Positions 2,423-23,699 of a DNA stretch of 64,000 bases are shown one piece after another. The stretch is from positions 1 to 64,000 of IMG/VR virus record IMGVR_UViG_3300035670_000009. One strand, given 5' to 3'. Under the pieces are notes generated by a model, which searched no databases, was not told the DNA's origin, and saw nothing but the letters and a program-made list of their open reading frames with translations. The stretch comes from a virus. Taxonomy: Duplodnaviria; Caudoviricetes. The first letter of the stretch is position 1, and each line of letters opens with the position of its first letter. A program made the translations under genes and the position numbers.

Positions 2423-4126
2423 TCAGAAGGTGCCGCCATCCAGCGAATCAGTCCACGCAATCGTGTCGCTCGACGCGGTGTACAGCAGCAGCTTGTCGGT
2501 CGAGCCGCCGCCGTCCAGCGCCGAAAGCGTGTCCGCGGTGTTCGCCACCAGGAGACTGCCTTTCGCAATTGACGTCAGTCCCGTGCCGCCCTGCGCCACG
2601 CCAACTGCGGTAAAACCTGTGCCAAGCGCGCCGCTTGTAAGCGTGCCAACGCTTGTAAGCGAAGACGCAGTGACACCCGAGCCGAGCGTGCTCGCACTAA
2701 GCACCGACGCGCCGTTGATGCGGTACGCGTATGTCGCGCCCAACTCAACGTTCTGATTAAAAGTCCAGCTGTCGGTCGCGTTGACCCACAGAATGGTTTT
2801 ATCCGTCGCGCCCTTGAGCGTAATGCCGCCGCCGTCGGCCGTGGTGTCGTCCGGCGCATACACGCTGCCCAGCTCAATGTTCTTATCGTCAACTGTGATC
2901 GTGGTGCTGTTTACGGTTGTAACCGTGCCATTTACGGTCAATGAACCGGAAACGACAAGATCTTTGTTAACCGTAACCGTGCCACCGGCGCTGGAGCCGA
3001 GGTTGATGTTCGTCGTCGAACCCGACGCGCCGCTTGTGCCAATGTTGATCGTGTTGGTTGCGCCGCTGTTGGTCGCGCCCACCGCCACATTGGTCGTGCT
3101 CGCACTCGTGCCGTCATAGCCCAAGTTCAACGTCGTGGCGGCGCCGAAGGCGTTCACCGTCGTCGCCGTCGTATCGAATACGCCGAACGTCGTGCTGCCC
3201 GTAGTTACGCTCGTCGTAAACGCGGGGCTTGTGCCAAACACCAGCGCGCCCGTGCCAGTCTCGTCGGTCACAGCCGTTGCGAGATTGGCACTGGACGGCG
3301 TGGCCAGAAAATCCGCGACTCCAGCGCCCAGACCAGAAATACCCGTGCTGACAGGCAGCCCCGTGCAGTTTGTCAGCGTGCCAGACGTTGGCGTACCAAG
3401 TACGGGCGTAACAAGCGTCGGGGTGTTGGCGAACACCAGCGCGCCCGTGCCAGTCTCGTCGCTGATTACGCCAGCCAACTCAGATGAAGTAGTTGCGGCA
3501 AAAGCGCTCAGCTTGTCAGTCGTGTAAACGACTGTGCCACCCGCGCCGAACGCGACGCTGCTGGAGTCGGTGCCCGTGAACGTCAGCGTGTTGCTCACGG
3601 TGAGCGTCTTGTTGTCGGCGATCGTGAGCGTCGCGGCCGTGGCGGGCGCGGTGATCGTGACCTTGTTAACCGAGGTCAGGCTCAGATGCCGCAGGCTGGC
3701 CAGGTCTTTGTTGGCGTCGACGACCAGAGCCTTGCTGGCGGTGACGGTGCCAGCTGTAACATCATCCAGAACGTTAAGTTCGGCGGCGCTCGTGTTGACC
3801 GTGACATTGTCAATCTTGATCGTGCCTTCAAGATTGACCGTGCCGTTGAACGTGTTCGTGTACGTCTCGCCAAACGTATTGTTTGCATCAAGTTTGGCGT
3901 ACTGCGACAAATTTGAGTTTGTCAGCGCTGTATCGACGTAGCTCTTGGTGGCAAAAGTTCCGTCGCCACCGATGGCAATGACGCTCGTAGCTACGCCGTC
4001 AGAATCGCCTTTACCGTAGTAAAGCGTATTGTTGACTTCGTTAAATGCTAACTCGGCGTTGGCCAGACTTGCCGGAGCGCCTGAATCACCAGTCTTACGA
4101 CGCTTGATGCGAATAACATTGGCCAT
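2423..4126 (-). CDS. Tail fibre / long virion structural protein
   Basis: Start MANVIRIKRR (GGAG upstream), LANAELAFN motif, Thr/Gly-rich, internal repeat DETGTGALVF x2, C-terminal DGGTF. Confidence 0.7.
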   Translation of the reverse strand: MANVIRIKRRKTGDSGAPASLANAELAFNEVNNTLYYGKGDSDGVATSVIAIGGDGTFATKSYVDTALTNSNLSQYAKLDANNTFGETYTNTFNGTVNLEGTIKIDNVTVNTSAAELNVLDDVTAGTVTASKALVVDANKDLASLRHLSLTSVNKVTITAPATAATLTIADNKTLTVSNTLTFTGTDSSSVAFGAGGTVVYTTDKLSAFAATTSSELAGVISDETGTGALVFANTPTLVTPVLGTPTSGTLTNCTGLPVSTGISGLGAGVADFLATPSSANLATAVTDETGTGALVFGTSPAFTTSVTTGSTTFGVFDTTATTVNAFGAATTLNLGYDGTSASTTNVAVGATNSGATNTINIGTSGASGSTTNINLGSSAGGTVTVNKDLVVSGSLTVNGTVTTVNSTTITVDDKNIELGSVYAPDDTTADGGGITLKGATDKTILWVNATDSWTFNQNVELGATYAYRINGASVLSASTLGSGVTASSLTSVGTLTSGALGTGFTAVGVAQGGTGLTSIAKGSLLVANTADTLSALDGGGSTDKLLLYTASSDTIAWTDSLDGGTF

Positions 4127-12893: not shown

Positions 12894-15799
12894 TTTTTGC
12901 TCTTCTCTTTTTTCTGCCTGTCGGCCTTCGACTTCGATGCGGACTCTGACTCGTCGCGGTCAGAGTTGCTGTCTTCCGGCTTGTCGTCAGCGTACGTTCC
13001 CTTGCGCCGGGCTGCTTGCAACAGGCCATAAGCCTTGCCGCCGACCAGGCCAGCCAGTGCGCCATTCGGGCCGCCCAGCATTTTGCCCGCGTAGCTGCCG
13101 TACCCAGCAGGCAAAACTTTCTGCCGGTCGTGCAGAATCTCGTTGAGCTTGTTGGGCTTATCGCCGAGCGCCTTACGCAACGCCCGCTCAGAGCGCTGAT
13201 TTGCATTGGCCTCGTGAAGCAACGACACGAGCGGAATCTTGCCCGCCACGCTGTACAGATCTCGCTGGAGGCCCGTGCCCTGACGGCGCAACCAGGTAAG
13301 CAACTTGTTCTTGCCGGGCTCGTACTCGGGGACTTTCTTTGCGTTAAAGTCTAGCGCGTGGCCCAGCTCGTGTGAAAGCGCCGCAGGATTATTGCCGTAA
13401 AGATATGTGCTGTCGGAGAACGGGTTATAAGCGTTGCCGCGCGTCAGGGCCGTCGCGAGATAGCTCAGCGGCAACGAAGCGGTGCCAATTGCTTTGCCTG
13501 CAACGCTCGTACGGGGATTGGTCATCGTGCGCTTGATTTCCCGAAAGAAGCGCGGGCCGCCAAGATACACCTGATGATTACTCAAAGCTTGCGGGTCAGC
13601 CTGCGCCATGGTTTGCGCCAGCGCTTTCATTTTCTGCGCGCGAATGTCTTCTGGCGCAGCCTCGGGGTCAGTCACGCCCGCTGCGCCAGTCCAATCGGTT
13701 GGATTCACATGCAGCTGCGGCGAGAGAATGAGATTGCTGGGAAAGCCGCCGAGGTGCCCAAGCGTACTGCTCAGCGCCATGGCAGGCAGACCGCCGCGGG
13801 ACACGTCGATAGATATCTTTTCAGCCTGCGCGGCGCCGCGTGCAATAGCGAACAAGTCACACGCTGACTTTGGACGAATGCCCTGCAGCTGGCCCCACGT
13901 TGTCGCCTTCGTTGGCACATCGCCAAAGAACGACACAAACTCGCCCGTGCCGTACGACGAGGGAATACGCCCGGCAGCTTGGCCCACGCGTGTATAGCGC
14001 TGCATGGCTTTGCTCATTGCTGCCTGCGCGGCTTCAGTGTCGCCGAACCTGCGGAACATGTGAATGCCGTCGGGCATGCGCAGGCGCGTCGTGGGCGGCG
14101 CGATGGGGCGCGGCGTTCGGTTCCACAGAAACTCTGCCAGCTCGCTTAGCCTGGCCCCTGGTACCGCCTCGCGACGTGCAGCAGACAGCGCGGGCAATAC
14201 AGACGGATGCGCCGTTGACATACTCAGGACTTTTTTAGCCGCTGTTTGCGCTGCGCCAGCTACGCGAGAAGGCAACGCGGGCGCAGCTTCGCGGCCAAAG
14301 ATACCCGCCATCGTGCCCATGCGGCTGCTGAGATTTCGCGTCAAGTCGGTCATGAAGTTGGCAGACTTTTCACTCTGCGCAAGACCAGCTAGGACAGCCA
14401 GGTCTGTTACAGAACCGCATTTGCAGTTCCACTTACGCAAAGATTTGTTAATGCGCGAGTCGGGGTCTGATTTCGTTTCACTTCCCGTGTTCACGCGTTT
14501 CATGCCGCACATGCGCGCACAGAACGAATTTTGGCGCTTCTTACGCTCGCCGCTGGGGTTGCTCTCAGTGACGGGCGGCTTGAGATTCCCGCCGTGCGCT
14601 TTCTCGTAGCTCTTGCGGCCTTTTTCATTCAGGCCGCCTTCGGGGTTCTTGCCTTCGCTGCGCTGCCATGCGGGACTCGCTGCGCCTTGTTTCGCAAGCG
14701 CCGCCTCGATGAGCTGGCGCATCTCGGGCTTGAGCTGGCCCATGTGCGAGAACTCGAGTCTATTTGGCTGCTCCATGACGTGCATGCCGCGAATAGCCTT
14801 GAGCTTGCGCTTGTACTTGGGCACGTCTTCGCGCAGCACATAGGGATCCCGATCGAAGATTCGGCGCAGCCAGCCAGGCGGCTTGTCTACAACGTCGACG
14901 CCGTGCGTGTGCCCGTAGCGATATGCGTTGCCCACGTCGACGAGACCTTCGGCGCCGTACCAGCCGGGCATCTTTTCATCATTGCCGCCCAGAATGCTCG
15001 TAATCCCAGCGGTCTTTGAGCTATCAGGCGAGTTCTTCTGGCCGAACGCCGCGTTGCCATTGAGCTGGCCCTTGGCGCCCAGTGGCCCAAACGCCTGGAT
15101 GGGATTGTGCTGCGGATTCGAGCCGCCGCCGACCGGGCTGTTACTGGGTTGCGGCATACCTTGCTGCGCTGTTTGGGCGCCCTGCGCAGCTGACGCATTC
15201 GCCGGGGCGTTAACCGTACCCATGGGGGGCGTAATGTACGGAGACGGAATCGAGTACCTCTTCAACCCCATGTTTTGCGGGACAAAACGCGGCTCTCGAC
15301 CCTCGGCCAACGCTTGCGCAGTTTCCATTTCATTGCGAAAAGGCTTCGCCAAAACAGTGGAAATCTTTGCAAGCAAACTTTGCGCCGCCTCTTTATCGCA
15401 CTCTTCACGCTCACGCGATTCAGACTGCGAAGACTCGGCGTTGTCTAACTTTTGCTCGCCCTGCTCACGTTCTTGTCCGGCATACGTGGGTTTGTCGCTG
15501 TGGGGAATGTCCACTTTGACCAACGAATCCATAGCCGTTTTAGCGTTGGCGCTACCTTCTGTATTGCATATTAAAAAGGCACCGTTGCCCGAAAATTGTG
15601 CAAGCCCGGCCGAAAGAGCCGCGAGAGCGGCAGCTTTTTCTTTGCTATTGGCGCTGGGCTTTTTCTGGTCGTGGTCTTTCTTATCGGCGTACATCGGCAG
15701 ACCCTTGTTGGATTCGGGGTACTCATGCGCCCAACGTTTGGCGATGTCGGGATGCGCTGCCCATAGAAAACGGCGCTGCTTCTCAGACTGAAATGGCAT
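12890..15799 (-). CDS. 969-aa multi-module protein with C-terminal HExxH metallopeptidase-like motif
   Basis: Modules PFQSEKQRRFLWAAHP, AWQRSEGKNPEGGLN...FCARM...RKWNC and SHELGH...HEANAN, separated by KxA-type linkers. Confidence 0.65.
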   Translation of the reverse strand: MPFQSEKQRRFLWAAHPDIAKRWAHEYPESNKGLPMYADKKDHDQKKPSANSKEKAAALAALSAGLAQFSGNGAFLICNTEGSANAKTAMDSLVKVDIPHSDKPTYAGQEREQGEQKLDNAESSQSESREREECDKEAAQSLLAKISTVLAKPFRNEMETAQALAEGREPRFVPQNMGLKRYSIPSPYITPPMGTVNAPANASAAQGAQTAQQGMPQPSNSPVGGGSNPQHNPIQAFGPLGAKGQLNGNAAFGQKNSPDSSKTAGITSILGGNDEKMPGWYGAEGLVDVGNAYRYGHTHGVDVVDKPPGWLRRIFDRDPYVLREDVPKYKRKLKAIRGMHVMEQPNRLEFSHMGQLKPEMRQLIEAALAKQGAASPAWQRSEGKNPEGGLNEKGRKSYEKAHGGNLKPPVTESNPSGERKKRQNSFCARMCGMKRVNTGSETKSDPDSRINKSLRKWNCKCGSVTDLAVLAGLAQSEKSANFMTDLTRNLSSRMGTMAGIFGREAAPALPSRVAGAAQTAAKKVLSMSTAHPSVLPALSAARREAVPGARLSELAEFLWNRTPRPIAPPTTRLRMPDGIHMFRRFGDTEAAQAAMSKAMQRYTRVGQAAGRIPSSYGTGEFVSFFGDVPTKATTWGQLQGIRPKSACDLFAIARGAAQAEKISIDVSRGGLPAMALSSTLGHLGGFPSNLILSPQLHVNPTDWTGAAGVTDPEAAPEDIRAQKMKALAQTMAQADPQALSNHQVYLGGPRFFREIKRTMTNPRTSVAGKAIGTASLPLSYLATALTRGNAYNPFSDSTYLYGNNPAALSHELGHALDFNAKKVPEYEPGKNKLLTWLRRQGTGLQRDLYSVAGKIPLVSLLHEANANQRSERALRKALGDKPNKLNEILHDRQKVLPAGYGSYAGKMLGGPNGALAGLVGGKAYGLLQAARRKGTYADDKPEDSNSDRDESESASKSKADRQKKEKSKK

Positions 15800-15878
15800 G
15801 GCGCGCTTTCTGCGTTAAAGATCGTTGTATCTTCGCAAAACGCGTGCGCTACGGCAACGGCCAGAGTGTACGAGAGCG

Positions 15879-15930
15879 CTGATAGCAAAAGGAAAGCGGG
15901 AGGCCCGGGGACCGTAGCCCCCGGGCGCTC
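15879..15930 (-). terminator. Intrinsic terminator, cassette family copy 2
   Basis: Hairpin with C(UACG)G loop plus UUUCCUUUUGCUAUCAG. Confidence 0.75.
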
Positions 15931-15975
15931 CACGTCTTTCCTCGCGATGAGGAGCAGCCGCGTGACCGCATGGCA

Positions 15976-16431
15976 CTAGGCCTGGGCCAGACCGCCCTGC
16001 GCGCAGATCTGCTGCACGTCGGCCGGGACCTGCTGGGCCTGCGCCTCGGGGGCGTAGAAGCCCTGCATGACGCCGCGGCTGAGCGGGTTGCTGCTGACCG
16101 CGGTGCCCGCCTTGGTCGTGACGTCGAGGACGGCCCGGGCGCTGCGGCCGATGCCGTAGCCCGTGACCTCGACGCCCTTGACCGCCGCGTCCGCCGTCAC
16201 CGTCGCGGCCGTGATGGCCGTGTCGGCGATGAGACAACCGGCGTCGAGCACCGCGCCGGTGGCGACCACCGCGCAGCCCGTGGTGAAGTTGCCGACCTTC
16301 GCGACGCCCTCCACCACCTTCTTGTCGCCACCGGAGCGGCGCAGGAGGTAGGACGCGACGGCGACGGTGCCGACGGCGATGGCGACCTTGGTGGCGGACT
16401 TGGCGAACAGGTTGCTGATGACGTGGAGCAT
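15976..16431 (-). CDS. Small Ala/Val/Gly-rich protein with hydrophobic segment (cassette gene)
   Basis: ORF between leader and terminator; VAIAVGTVAVASYLL. Confidence 0.7.
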   Translation of the reverse strand: MLHVISNLFAKSATKVAIAVGTVAVASYLLRRSGGDKKVVEGVAKVGNFTTGCAVVATGAVLDAGCLIADTAITAATVTADAAVKGVEVTGYGIGRSARAVLDVTTKAGTAVSSNPLSRGVMQGFYAPEAQAQQVPADVQQICAQGGLAQA

Positions 16432-16540
16432 CTGATTCCTCGAGTGTTAAGCTCGAGGTCCCAGTGGAGACAGATGGGTTTTCTAAGCCCAGGTTTCGGC
16501 CTTGTGGATCACCCGTCCACAACAGCTATATCTGCTCCAT
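16432..16540 (-). promoter_or_regulatory. Structured 5' leader, subtype A copy 1
   Basis: Near-identical to 17703-17812 with compensatory changes. Confidence 0.7.
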
Positions 16541-16543
16541 CTC

Positions 16544-16572
16544 ATATGCCGGGTTTTTGGCTGTTATTTAGC
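16544..16572 (-). promoter_or_regulatory. Phage promoter GCTAAA-N16-GGCATAT
   Basis: Exact consensus and spacing. Confidence 0.8.
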
Positions 16573-16633
16573 TCGCCCCAGATCATATGCGTAATACACC
16601 GTTTTGCGCACGTTTACGCATATGCGCGGGGCG

Positions 16634-16688
16634 CTGATAGCAAAAGAAAACCGCACGCCAGCGGCCCTGCAGACCGCCAGCGTGGTTC
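16634..16688 (-). terminator. Intrinsic terminator, cassette family copy 3
   Basis: Hairpin plus UUUUCUUUUGCUAUCAG. Confidence 0.65.
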
Positions 16689-16948
16689 TCTTCGTTGGAG
16701 TTTCACCAACACCCCGTTTCTTTCCGGTTTCCCGGTTCAGCCTTTCGGCAACCCCGCGAGGGGCGAGTGAGTTTCTCGACCGTAAGCACCTGCTAAGACG
16801 GCAGGCCCTTACGGATTTGGTCGGCCTCAGTCGACCTATACGGCGCTCGTCTTCCCGAAGCCAGGGAAAACTCGGGCTACTCACATGCCGTCACATATGA
16901 GTAACCGTAGCGCCGCTTGGACTATCAGTGCAATATGATAATCCAGGT
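16640..16948 (-). ncRNA. Putative ~310-nt structured non-coding RNA
   Basis: Bounded by consensus promoter and terminator; serial hairpins (CC-GAAA-GG, CCGG-GAAA-CCGG, GGUCGAC/GCCGACC, CCUGC/GCAGG); no credible ORF. Confidence 0.55.
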
Positions 16949-16954
16949 CATTTA

Positions 16955-16983
16955 ATATGCCGGAGTTTTGGCCGGTATTTAGC
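16955..16983 (-). promoter_or_regulatory. Phage promoter GCTAAA-N16-GGCATAT
   Basis: Exact consensus and spacing. Confidence 0.8.
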
Positions 16984-16998
16984 TCGGCGTTCAGCGCG

Positions 16999-17053
16999 CT
17001 AATAGCAAAAGGAAACCGGGCGGCCGGGACCCGAAGGCCCCGGCGCACCCGGT
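16999..17053 (-). terminator. Intrinsic terminator, cassette family copy 4
   Basis: C(UUCG)G hairpin; 17002-17053 is identical to 17849-17900. Confidence 0.8.
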
Positions 17054-17099
17054 GTGAGTGCTGTATTTGCTAACGCGCCCAGCAAGGCGCGGTCGGAGT

Positions 17100-17702
17100 T
17101 CAGTCGCAGGCCGCGGCGGTTGCGGCCATGTCCGGCGCCACTTCGGCGCCAAACATGCACCCCGCCGCATCGAGGGCCTGCATGAGGCTCTCGATGTTCA
17201 GGAACTCTGACCTGGTATCGGTCCCGGTCTTCCACGCGAGCTCGCAGCTCGCGACGTCCCAGGCCTTGTAGCCGACCTGGTTGAACGTCAACTTCACTTC
17301 CACGGACCTGTTTTTGGTCCACGTGCCCTCCCACCAGAGCATTAGCTCGGTGGGCGCGACGAGGCAGCAGCCGTCCTCGTCAAAGTCGGGCTCGCAGCTC
17401 GTGCCGCCCGACGCCACGAACCCTCCGCGGGGCGGGTCGAAGACGCCGTCCTCCGCCTCCGCGGCGGAGCGGAGGATCCGGCGGGCCTCGGCCGCGATCA
17501 CGGCCGGGTTCCAGGTACCCGTCTCGGGCAGCTGGATTGCGCGGATTAACGGGTCGAGCCGCTGCCCGATCAGCCCGGCCCAGTAGGCCAAGAGAACGGG
17601 CAGCGCCCGCCGGACGTTGTCCGGCACCTCGGAGGCGTATGCCTCCGAGGCGAACCAGCCCAGCTTACCCTCTCTGTACTGGTCCGGAGCGAAGTTGAAC
17701 AT
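17100..17702 (-). CDS. Hypothetical protein (cassette gene)
   Basis: Start reassigned to MFNFAP at 17702 because the leader repeat ends at the same offset as in the 16431 gene. Confidence 0.7.
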   Translation of the reverse strand: MFNFAPDQYREGKLGWFASEAYASEVPDNVRRALPVLLAYWAGLIGQRLDPLIRAIQLPETGTWNPAVIAAEARRILRSAAEAEDGVFDPPRGGFVASGGTSCEPDFDEDGCCLVAPTELMLWWEGTWTKNRSVEVKLTFNQVGYKAWDVASCELAWKTGTDTRSEFLNIESLMQALDAAGCMFGAEVAPDMAATAAACD

Positions 17703-17812
17703 TTGATTCCTCGGGCGGTAAGCCCGAGGCTCCAGTGGAGTCAGCATGGGTTTTCTAAACCCAGGTTTCAGCTGCGCGGATCACCCGTCCGCAACAGCTA
17801 TAGCTGCTCCAC
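17703..17812 (-). promoter_or_regulatory. Structured 5' leader, subtype A copy 2
   Basis: Near-identical to 16432-16540. Confidence 0.7.
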
Positions 17813-17815
17813 GTT

Positions 17816-17844
17816 ATATGCCCGAATATGCCCAGGTATTTAGC
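17816..17844 (-). promoter_or_regulatory. Phage promoter GCTAAA-N16-GGCATAT
   Basis: Exact consensus; spacer contains a second GGGCATAT. Confidence 0.8.
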
Positions 17845-17845
17845 A

Positions 17846-17900
17846 CTGATAGCAAAAGGAAACCGGGCGGCCGGGACCCGAAGGCCCCGGCGCACCCGGT
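17846..17900 (-). terminator. Intrinsic terminator, cassette family copy 5
   Basis: 52 bp identical to copy 4. Confidence 0.8.
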
Positions 17901-17930
17901 TTGCATCCGACGAGAACAGAATTGATTGCG

Positions 17931-18380
17931 TCAATCGACGAGGCACCCGCCCCGGTTGTTGACGCTCCATTTCCAGCCCGCCCGGGCCACGCGGGCCAGC
18001 GCCATTTGATGCTCCACAGCCGCGTCCCAGGCTGCGTAGCCCAGGTCCGCGATAGGGACCTCAAGCGCAGCCGTGGTCTCGTCGTGGGCAGCGCATAGCG
18101 CCGCCCAGCGCTCCTCTTGTTCCTCGTAAGAGCCGACGACTTGGTCCATTTCGACGGCCCAGGCGGCCGCCTTGGTCTCCTGGTCGGAGACCGGAGCCTG
18201 GTCTAACCAGGCCCACGGCATGACCTCCGGATGGAAGTCAGCCGGGTCCTCGGCGTCTTCGAGGGGCTGAAGCCAGAACGTCCCCGTCCGGTCGACCGGC
18301 AGGACTTTGCCCCGCTCGATGACGCTGAGGATCGTGAGCACCAGGCACGCCGCCAAAGGAACCAGAACGAAACCAGCCAT
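17931..18380 (-). CDS. Small protein with N-terminal TM helix and acidic body (cassette gene)
   Basis: AGGAGG RBS; MAGFVLVPLAACLVLTILSVI. Confidence 0.75.
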   Translation of the reverse strand: MAGFVLVPLAACLVLTILSVIERGKVLPVDRTGTFWLQPLEDAEDPADFHPEVMPWAWLDQAPVSDQETKAAAWAVEMDQVVGSYEEQEERWAALCAAHDETTAALEVPIADLGYAAWDAAVEHQMALARVARAGWKWSVNNRGGCLVD

Positions 18381-18465
18381 GATAGTGGCCTCCTAGGTAT
18401 TCACAGCTTGCATCGCTCACCCGGCAACGCTGCAGCAAGACCCGCATACCTAGACGGGACTCATT
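18381..18465 (-). promoter_or_regulatory. Structured 5' leader, subtype B copy 2
   Basis: Similar to 12225-12308; GTTGC-CGGGTGA-GCGAT stem. Confidence 0.6.
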
Positions 18466-18467
18466 AC

Positions 18468-18496
18468 ATATGCCCGGGAAACGCGCTGGCTTTAGC
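18468..18496 (-). promoter_or_regulatory. Phage promoter GCTAAA-N16-GGCATAT
   Basis: Exact consensus and spacing. Confidence 0.8.
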
Positions 18497-18516
18497 CGAA
18501 TAGATATCTATTGACT

Positions 18517-18608
18517 GACTGCCTTGCTGAGAGCAGTCGGACTGCGCTCGTGAGAGCAGTCGGACTGCCTTGCTGAGAGCAGTCGGACTGCGCTCGTGAG
18601 AGCAGTCT
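18517..18608. repeat. 4 x 23-bp tandem repeat of alternating palindromic units
   Basis: gactgccttgctgagagcagtcg and gactgcgctcgtgagagcagtcg alternate ABAB; each unit has GACTGC...GCAGTC arms. Confidence 0.95.
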
Positions 18609-18971
18609 GCGTTGCTGCGCGGGCATGTACCAGATTCCAGAAAATGGAAAATGCGCCGTAAGTGTTTTATACGCATGGACTTACGGCACATATTTTTTGC
18701 GAAACACGTAAGTCTTTTGCTGCCCACATGTTGCGCAGTAAATGCTTTTGTTTTGTCAAGCTGTTTGGCTGTAAAAACCACTGCTCGTGTATCCGTAGCG
18801 CGGCCTGTTTTATTGTTTTGCCCAGCAATACCGCAAAAACAGTAATTTTTTGGATACACGGGTATGTATGAAATAGCTGAAGATTGTGTACACAATGCGC
18901 AGTTTGGCAGGCTTCGCAAGTTCCGCAGTTCGCGAATCGCGAATCTTCGTTCCTGCTGCCCCAAAAACCGC

Positions 18972-23130: not shown

Positions 23131-23203
23131 TGCGGCCCCCGGGAATCGAACCCGGAACCGAGGGATTAAAAGTCCCTTGCTCTGCCGATTGAGCTAGAGC
23201 CGC
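23131..23203 (-). tRNA. tRNA-Lys(UUU)
   Basis: GCGGCTC acceptor stem, AGGGA-CTTTTAA-TCCCT anticodon arm, GGTTCGATTCC T-arm; CCA not encoded. Confidence 0.95.
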
Positions 23204-23210
23204 GACCGAA

Positions 23211-23283
23211 AGCCAGCGGCCGGGAACGATCCGGCGACCTACGGTTTACAAAACCGTTGCTCTACCAATTGAGCTACGCTGGC
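23211..23283 (-). tRNA. tRNA-Thr(UGU), atypical T-loop
   Basis: GCCAGCG acceptor stem, ACGGT-TTTGTAA-ACCGT anticodon arm; T-loop reads ATCGTTC. Confidence 0.88.
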
Positions 23284-23301
23284 AAATTCCACAATCAATT
23301 A

Positions 23302-23660
23302 TGGAGGCGCCGGGAATCGAACCCGGGTCCAGTGATGTTTCAGAACAAACGTCTACGTGTGTATTTGGTCAACTTAAATCTCGTCTGTGCGCCCCCGGCC
23401 AACAGGGTGCAGCACAGACCAGCCTAGAACTTGTTTAGCCGCGACCGTACCAGGCGGTGAATCGCAGCGAGTCGGATTTGACGACCGCTTAGAAAGCCCT
23501 CCCGACTGGAGCTAACTTTGCGGGCTGCTGATTTTTAGATCAGGCAGCGAGAGCAAGCGGAGCGCCGGTTAAGCACTCAATCGACTTTTAACGTGGCCCG
23601 TCGATCAACCACGACACGCAATCTGAACCTCATGTCATCCTGTCGAAACCTTTTCGCCCC
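23302..23660 (-). ncRNA. ssrA: tmRNA, predicted tag (A)GAPLALAA*
   Basis: 5' GGGGCGAAAAGGTTTCGAC, 3' GGTTCGATTCCCGGCGCCTCCA tRNA-Ala-like domain, pk1, tag frame 23540-23566 ending LAA-stop. Confidence 0.92.
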
Positions 23661-23699
23661 CTTGGTTCCGCAGTCTAGCAGACTGCAAAACTTGGACAA

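Follow-up and report, generated by a model that had tools for sequence, protein, structure and literature searches.

Does the 309-nt interval at 16640–16948 (minus strand) of IMG/VR virus record IMGVR_UViG_3300035670_000009, a hairpin-rich stretch with no convincing open reading frame (ORF), encode an RNA? The window that we analysed is the first 64 kb of this 203 910-bp record (positions 1–64 000), which has direct terminal repeats and is rated 100% complete. Its GC content is ~58%, nearly all genes lie on the minus strand, and the window proteins include a family-A DNA polymerase fused to a UDG-like domain, plus SNF2 helicases. The source is an uncultured jumbo phage, and the interval lies near the left end of the 204-kb genome. 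A first-pass annotation had read it as an undescribed phage non-coding RNA (ncRNA) with its own promoter and terminator, for example a protein sponge, anti-defence decoy or scaffold. We conclude that it is probably a real non-coding RNA gene; the grounds are an extreme fold, variants whose substitutions spare that fold, and contigs from RNA libraries.

THE RNA UNIT AND ITS FOLD

On the minus strand the unit runs from a promoter-like motif (16955–16985) through a hairpin-rich body of ~255 nt to a terminator stem followed by UUUUCUUUU. It is one module of a shuffling array of terminator-promoter cassettes, in which the order is terminator, promoter motif, structured leader and small gene. RNA positions are numbered from 16948 (position 1). 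The elements, in order of transcription, are as follows.

16955–16985, minus strand: promoter-like motif of the RNA unit, GAGCTAAATA-N14-GGCATAT; not a sigma-70 consensus
16919–16948, minus strand: putative transcript start and 5′-terminal hairpin P1 (RNA 5–30); pair probability 0.99
16840–16916, minus strand: Domain I, a three-way junction with closing stem 33–40/102–109, a 14-bp hairpin (43–74) and an 8-bp hairpin (78–100)
16819–16836, minus strand: hairpin P3 (RNA 113–130), the most variable element
16780–16814, minus strand: hairpin P4 (RNA 135–169), 7 + 6 bp around a 1x1 internal loop, with a 7-nt apical loop
16694–16777, minus strand: 3′ domain (RNA 172–255), a row of short hairpins with two GAAA tetraloops, one UGAAACU loop and A-rich linkers
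16643–16693, minus strand: intrinsic terminator, an extended GC-rich stem and then the U-tract
16544–16574, minus strand: promoter-like motif of the next cassette (leader and 151-aa gene), the downstream limit of the RNA unit

Folding was compared with shuffled sequence, a check that the first-pass annotation had proposed. The whole unit has a minimum free energy (MFE) of −153.9 kcal/mol (z-score −7.69), and none of 100 shuffles matches it; with the terminator removed, the body still reaches a z-score of −6.89. When fold was adjusted for GC content, a single one of 816 windows covering both strands of the genome was more extreme, namely the palindromic repeat array at 18501–18752. All eight stems that had been listed by eye are present in the MFE structure, with pair probabilities of 0.75–0.99. 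The stem that closes the three-way junction (33–40/102–109) had been missed. Pair probabilities in Domain I are 0.98–0.99, and for P4 0.99.

That the unit lies between a promoter and a terminator holds up as first described, in that a clade-specific motif was located on one side and an intrinsic terminator on the other. The terminator core (16654–16684) has 14 pairs followed by a T-run and ranked first among terminator-like sites in our scan; its tail motif, TTTTGCTATCAGCGC, has nine copies in the window (0.74 expected). The full motif GAGCTAAATA..GGCATAT has two exact matches in the window (16955–16985 and 16544–16574) where none is expected by chance. A looser form, CTAAA-N15/16-GGCATAT, occurs at 10 genome sites. 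They belong to nine units, one of which has its box doubled, and every site is on the minus strand, ahead of a transcription unit.

Genome minus strand, ~12317, 16550, 16961, 17822, 18474, 27604, 38685, 107541 and 151069: CTAAA-N15/16-GGCATAT, then NNN-RTG

A degenerate pattern search found the motif conserved in 18 stretches of IMG/VR contigs, several of these contigs being ~200 kb, and a promoter scan of 15500–18500 found no sigma-70-type site. From its position and conservation, the GGCATAT-box motif probably functions as a promoter. Other units of the same promoter class also begin with GGAUAU-type 5′ hairpins. Because these first hairpins resemble P1, we read P1 as a generic 5′ feature of the promoter class that stands outside the specific payload. 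Both this generic character and the cassette array had escaped the first-pass annotation.

TRANSCRIPT EVIDENCE

In two metatranscriptome runs, each from a different study, sampled words matched the RNA, and none matched its flanks. We aligned the contigs of these runs to 15976–17750 at 80% likeness, and each run gave one short contig, 206 nt at 16716–16922 and 155 nt at 16774–16923. Both contigs fall wholly within RNA positions 26–233, each ends at RNA position 26/27, and none lies on the flanks. They differ from the window at 11 positions plus one gap and at 9 positions plus one gap, and these differences match, over the same ranges, a variant of the unit on contig L054 (see below). The flanking promoter and leader segments of L054 are 96–99% identical to the window, so flank contigs would have aligned if present. 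The two contigs are a real hint of a discrete, abundant RNA. Part of the stretch is also contained in runs X7–X11, which may carry further variants.

VARIANTS OF THE UNIT

Protein searches and contig look-ups yielded three versions of the unit. The window version recurs unchanged in L009, a JGI contig of 198.8 kb. L008, an ENA contig of 114.7 kb, has four changes in the RNA, and RNA of this type is also found on DNA contigs from one freshwater and one marine run. The version on L054 (an ENA contig, 11.9 kb) differs by 17 substitutions and one deletion in its body, and its terminator has ten changes. All three are predicted to share one fold architecture. RNA positions 180–268 (89 nt) are invariant in all of them, though elsewhere in the unit they are up to 7% apart.

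The body of L054 folds to −114.7 kcal/mol. For comparison, the window RNA was mutated at random with L054's numbers of transitions, transversions and deletions, and such mutants average −99.4 kcal/mol; unweighted mutations gave similar values. The fraction of random mutants that fold as well as L054 is given for each segment.

Body: 2%
Body without the 5′ hairpin: 5.4%
5′ hairpin P1: 3.4%
Terminator: 0.25%

It is thus supported that the substitutions spare the RNA structure (P = 0.02). The terminator keeps its pairing throughout despite 8 substitutions and 2 deletions (P = 0.0025), and P1 is retained despite 6 substitutions (P = 0.034), which include one double compensatory change at 12–23. 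Domain I differs among the three variants only by U80C, where a G-U pair has become G-C. P4 has lost one pair in L054. Within and beside P3, L054 carries several substitutions and a deletion of 1 nt; a weaker hairpin is left, and its preservation is not significant.

SEARCHES FOR KNOWN FAMILIES AND TARGETS

An Rfam 15 scan of the window, another check that had been proposed, put only the transfer-messenger RNA (tmRNA) and two tRNAs above the gathering threshold, and the RNA matches no family. A permissive Rfam scan of 16300–17300 gave 11–18 bits, against thresholds of 45–210, mostly on the terminator. The RNA is not tRNA-like: ARAGORN reported genes only at 23131–23661, the permissive scan had no match in the tRNA clan, Domain I is a three-way junction, and by eye its 7-nt loop is not a T-loop. 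Nor is it ToxI-like, as 16500–17100 contains no tandem repeats and the neighbouring cassette proteins matched no Pfam or PHROG family. For CRISPR-repeat mimicry, a search limited to exact 23-mers of two hairpins, P4 and P2b, gave no repeat-like match in 185 579 GTDB species genomes. Elsewhere in the phage genome no complementary stretch exceeds one 13-mer, and 12–13-mers are at chance level, so no antisense target stands out there. Among features of Hfq-type small RNAs, a terminator with a U-tail is present; complementarity was tested in the phage's own genome only, with nothing above chance. A search of 16400–17200 against GenBank phage genomes found nothing similar, and an IMG/VR search with the 151-aa, 215-aa and 969-aa proteins of the locus found no close relatives.

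A DIFFERENT STRUCTURED RNA FAMILY IN RELATIVES

L027, a related 212-kb jumbo-phage contig, has an ORF-less 651-nt unit at the equivalent array position, with a z-score of −13 and a 26-bp closing helix, and L026 has >1 kb without a credible ORF at that position. Homologues of the L027 RNA, ~455 nt long, occur in 6 of 15 related IMG/VR records. The copies of this family are the following.

L027, 8706–9109
L026, 7131–7581
L059, 1280–1734, minus strand
L061, 1404–1854, minus strand
L060, 1281–1734, minus strand
L058, 1279–1732, minus strand
L056, 1281–1735, minus strand
L042, 1–71: partial copy

In six records the copies each have a terminator and a sigma-70-like promoter, by eye TTGACG-N16-TAnAAT. 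Five sequences of the family share 148 consensus pairs, 15 of them with compensatory changes, and a 25-bp long-range closing helix. A covariance model of the family, R2, recovers L027 (E-value 2.5e-31) and the L026 copy, which is otherwise undetectable (E-value 1.9e-10). The family has no match in Rfam and is uncatalogued.

The window RNA occupies the same niche. Both RNAs are stand-alone, ORF-less, terminator-ended and highly structured, they come from the same clade sharing the cassette promoter motif, and in L026 and L027 the family lies in the same array, upstream of a DUF6321 gene. Both also have, by eye and as a lead only, a 5-bp hairpin with a UGAAA-type loop after a G-run. They differ in that the ~455-nt family is larger, covarying, closed by a long helix and widespread in the clade, whereas the window RNA, at 309 nt, lacks a long closing helix and is restricted to a single lineage. 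R2 matched nothing in this phage's whole genome, 16.6–17.0 kb included, and an nhmmer profile matched nothing either, so the window RNA is not recognisable as a member. Neither sequence comparison nor covariance models related the two RNAs, whichever served as query. A second ORF-less unit of L026 was also aligned with the window RNA and rejected, since the homology was unconvincing except in one small hairpin. The ~455-nt family offers a better starting point for experiments and comparative studies, and it deserves a separate follow-up.

POINTS AGAINST A FUNCTIONAL RNA

Several observations weigh against a functional RNA gene. One group concerns transcription. The contigs from the RNA libraries were assembled at ~2.7x depth and do not define transcript ends, DNA carry-over is possible, and the two studies may be one campaign. 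The promoter motif is of no recognised type and the transcript start is a predicted one.

A second group concerns distribution. BLAST and R1, a covariance model of the window RNA, found no match in 15 related IMG/VR records, four of them nearly complete, and none in L002, L004, L005, L007 or the more distant L026–L028; R1 matches are limited to the near-identical copies L008 and L054. An exact scan of IMG/VR with a 22-mer of the invariant 3′ domain gave no match. With a 19-mer, an exact scan of JGI metagenomes gave 15 matches, all of them chance occurrences in LysR-type regulator genes (peptide AAERLNR). As an orphan, the RNA is limited to a single species-level lineage, which has been sampled in subsurface/soil, freshwater and marine/aquatic data.

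A third group concerns conservation. Relative to L008 the RNA is 98.7% identical, the backbone 98–99% and the neighbouring cassette genes 63–90%; with L054, identity is 92.9% for the RNA body, 94.9% for the 969-aa gene and 70.8% for the 151-aa gene. In neither comparison is the RNA conserved above background. We therefore take it to evolve at the backbone rate, with the flanking small genes as the hypervariable part. Extra conservation of the RNA in L008 was considered and rejected, since its identity equals the genome background and the hypervariability belongs to the neighbouring cassette genes. The proposal to look for homologues and covariation had a divided outcome: three variants were found, and covariation in them does not exceed shuffles. 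Pair counting, on only these three sequences, gave one double compensatory pair, several wobble-compatible changes and 4 broken cells.

Much of this is what one would expect of a transcribed but functionless leftover, from a cassette whose gene was lost or never present, in which GC-rich filler folds by accident and the flanking modules are what is selected and recombined. Confinement to one species-level lineage, background identity, the lack of significant covariation and the failure of P3 and P4 to be preserved beyond chance all fit, and cassette arrays of this kind turn over fast (PMC2839356). Even so we hold this explanation to be unlikely. The fold is more extreme than that of 815 of 816 genome windows, substitutions have spared it, and 89 nt are invariant in variants that are 7% apart elsewhere in the unit. 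The unit has been kept in three sublineages, while a neighbouring cassette was lost and adjacent genes fell to 63–71% nucleotide identity. Relatives also have ORF-less structured RNAs at the same array position, one family of which is clearly covarying.

THE CASSETTE ARRAY AND POSSIBLE CIS EFFECTS

The small units of the array are bounded by repeated terminator and promoter modules (repeat families D1, D2 and D4). The module on the upstream side of the RNA unit is the following.

16996–17056, minus strand: terminator module of the upstream (215-aa gene) cassette; terminator-like, and a 61-nt direct repeat of 17843–17903 (95% identical)

L054 lacks exactly the interval between the two 61-nt repeats (window 17057–17842) and keeps the RNA cassette; its 61-nt overlap maps to both copies. 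A link between the RNA and the 215-aa protein was accordingly rejected, because L054 has the RNA without the 215-aa gene. L004 and L005 (~80% protein identity) carry a homologue of the 151-aa gene downstream, preceded by the same promoter and leader, and have neither the RNA nor the 215-aa cassette.

These arrangements bear on whether the RNA acts in cis, as a transcriptional insulator or attenuator or as a stabiliser that, by partial read-through, affects either the 151-aa gene downstream or the 215-aa gene upstream. The array is rich in structured leaders, leaders of several hundred nucleotides precede genes in some relatives such as L046, and the unit lies between two genes on the same strand. 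We regard a cis role as improbable, since a strong terminator and a full promoter motif stand between the RNA and the 151-aa gene. In L004 and L005, moreover, the homologous gene has its promoter and leader without the RNA, L054 retains the RNA without the 215-aa gene, and the RNA-library contigs reach neither neighbour.

The structured leader, ~100 nt between promoter motif and cassette start codon, has two copies in the window (16420–16572 and 17691–17844, minus strand; 76–80% identical) and is also found in L004, L005 and L054. In L046, at ~3160–3886 on the minus strand of the locus, the same promoter motif is followed by a structured untranslated leader of ~470 nt before a small gene; long folded 5′ regions therefore recur in the clade. 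The small cassette genes at 15976–16431, 17100–17747 and 17931–18380 (all minus strand) are hypervariable between strains with 95–99% backbone identity, and their GC content at third codon positions (GC3) is 0.81–0.97, against ~0.64–0.73 in backbone genes. Contigs from two other samples break at the 61-nt terminator module, with several different continuations.

RNA OR DNA STRUCTURE

Inverted repeats are also expected of elements that work as DNA, such as protein-binding palindromes, an origin or packaging signal, or a recombination site, and these could mimic RNA hairpins. Inverted repeats are numerous here, an AT-rich palindromic candidate origin (18501–18752) lies 1.6 kb away, and contigs of other samples break at nearby terminator modules. 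The two strands are, however, not equivalent. The body has an MFE of −119.4 kcal/mol as transcribed and −101.8 kcal/mol as its complement. This gap of 17.6 kcal/mol arises because at ~10 positions in the helices a G-U pair corresponds to an A-C mismatch on the opposite strand, and it points to structure at the RNA rather than the DNA level. The promoter-like motif and terminator also share the orientation of all genes, the interval is covered by RNA-library contigs, and neither iterons nor tandem repeats were found in 16500–17100. A DNA-level element is thus very improbable.

CODING POTENTIAL

The ORFs crossing the unit had been described as lacking a ribosome-binding site and running through the terminator, and this proved correct. 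The longest, a 106-aa GTG frame at 16564–16884, has no Shine-Dalgarno sequence, starts within the 14-bp stem, and continues past both the terminator and the promoter that follows. In this frame GC content is nearly even across the codon phases (0.55/0.60/0.58), whereas GC3 in the adjacent cassette genes is 0.81–0.97. It has no relatives among 5.8 billion predicted proteins, miscalled ones included, and JGI and ENA gene calls on three independent contigs, made by three pipelines, place no gene over the RNA stretch. Both AUGs within the body have UGA as the next codon. The AUG beside the putative transcript start opens a mini-frame of 8–9 codons, in which L008's three changes are all non-synonymous or stop-shifting. 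The unit is not coding, and a small protein or peptide as its product, whether from the open 106-codon frame or as a leaderless 8–9-aa peptide from that AUG, is extremely improbable on these same grounds.

PROPOSED ROLE

The first-pass reading as an undescribed phage ncRNA stands, given the lack of an Rfam match or coding signal, the strand-specific fold, the structure-sparing substitutions and the RNA-library contigs. Its suggestion of a sponge, decoy or scaffold gained no support from any test, and no partner or target was found. The explanation that we prefer, with moderate confidence, is a stand-alone, structured ncRNA gene of ~300 nt that is the payload of one array cassette and would act in trans.

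Transcription would start a few bases past the GGCATAT box and stop at the intrinsic terminator, with promoter activity and exact ends as predicted from the letters. The folded RNA would comprise a 5′ protective hairpin, the three-way-junction domain, two further hairpins and, towards its 3′ end, a row of hairpins with tetraloops; GAAA tetraloops suggest tertiary contacts. It would act in trans in early infection, and its likeliest mode would be binding of a protein, of host or phage, for which it would serve as decoy, sponge or scaffold; base-pairing with a phage transcript would be less likely. We suggest trans action through protein binding because the unit is stand-alone, its fold is compact and multi-hairpin with GNRA loops, its small-gene neighbours are hypervariable, and relatives have positionally equivalent RNAs.

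A wider and more tentative idea, which we consider possible though rather doubtful, is that in this clade the early array ahead of the DUF6321 gene serves as a site where RNA payloads can replace one another (the 309-nt RNA here, the ~455-nt family elsewhere), these being trans-acting takeover or counter-defence effectors, for example protein decoys. If true, such payloads would be the RNA counterpart of the hypervariable small proteins encoded alongside. Fast-evolving small genes in a shuffling array are the kind of place for host-takeover and counter-defence functions. If the window RNA targets a host protein, that repertoire would gain an RNA effector. What can be claimed at present is limited by the narrow distribution and the lack of covariation.

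COMPARISON WITH KNOWN SYSTEMS

Phage-encoded structured RNAs are a kind already known, and the window RNA is a new orphan among them. Those with their own promoter and terminator are few and mostly functionally unassigned. The window RNA is a clean candidate with environmental transcript evidence.

GOLLD, ROOL and OLE have strong covariation support and Rfam models, whereas the window RNA is 309 nt and matches none of these models in our Rfam scans. GOLLD and ROOL are often phage- or prophage-encoded, and all three RNAs are 500–800 nt or more in length. Like the window RNA they are highly structured ncRNAs without assigned function that were found computationally, and they are described as forming homo-oligomers (PMC12286853).

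The array resembles the promoter-early stem-loop (PeSL) cassettes of T4-type phages RB49 and phi1, as set out in the portion of the original report used here (Arbiol et al. 2010, PMC2839356). Both are hyperplastic regions whose small, non-essential units lie between repeats of a module that combines a terminator stem-loop with a promoter, and in both, recombination between modules adds or removes units (PMC2839356). Here the example is the 215-aa cassette, which is absent in L054. In the same portion of that report, PeSL promoters are strong and sigma-70-like, PeSL payloads are protein genes, and promoter and terminator activity were measured (PMC2839356); here the CTAAA-N15/16-GGCATAT motif is not sigma-70-like, one payload is an ORF-less folded RNA, and both activities are predicted.

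RNA anti-CRISPRs (Racrs) are small phage ncRNAs that occur as solitary units; they work by decoying host defence proteins (Camara-Wilpert et al. 2023, PMC10651486), a mechanism of the sort suggested in the first-pass annotation. They are defined by CRISPR-repeat mimicry (PMC10651486), whereas the window RNA has no repeat-like match for the two hairpins searched and is about ten times the length of a repeat. In cultured jumbo phages such as PA5oct, ncRNAs have been annotated by RNA-seq, and these are, like the window RNA, jumbo-phage-encoded (PMC7318152).

OTHER FEATURES OF THE WINDOW AND ITS RELATIVES

A listed 166-aa ORF at 18464–18964 overlaps the palindromic array at 18501–18752 and has no codon periodicity (GC by phase 0.49/0.50/0.47), and for this reason it is probably not a gene.

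The tmRNA gene is kept across the jumbo-phage clade. In the window its predicted tag is GAPLALAA, and it is adjoined by tRNA-Lys(UUU) and tRNA-Thr(UGU). The copies are as follows.

Window, 23131–23661: tmRNA
L004, 2478–2901: tmRNA
L026, 4753–5097: tmRNA
L027, 3742–4088: tmRNA
L028, 3492–3837: tmRNA

L027 also has, at 870–939, a Pistol self-cleaving ribozyme (RF02679) that scores 52.8 bits against a threshold of 34.5.

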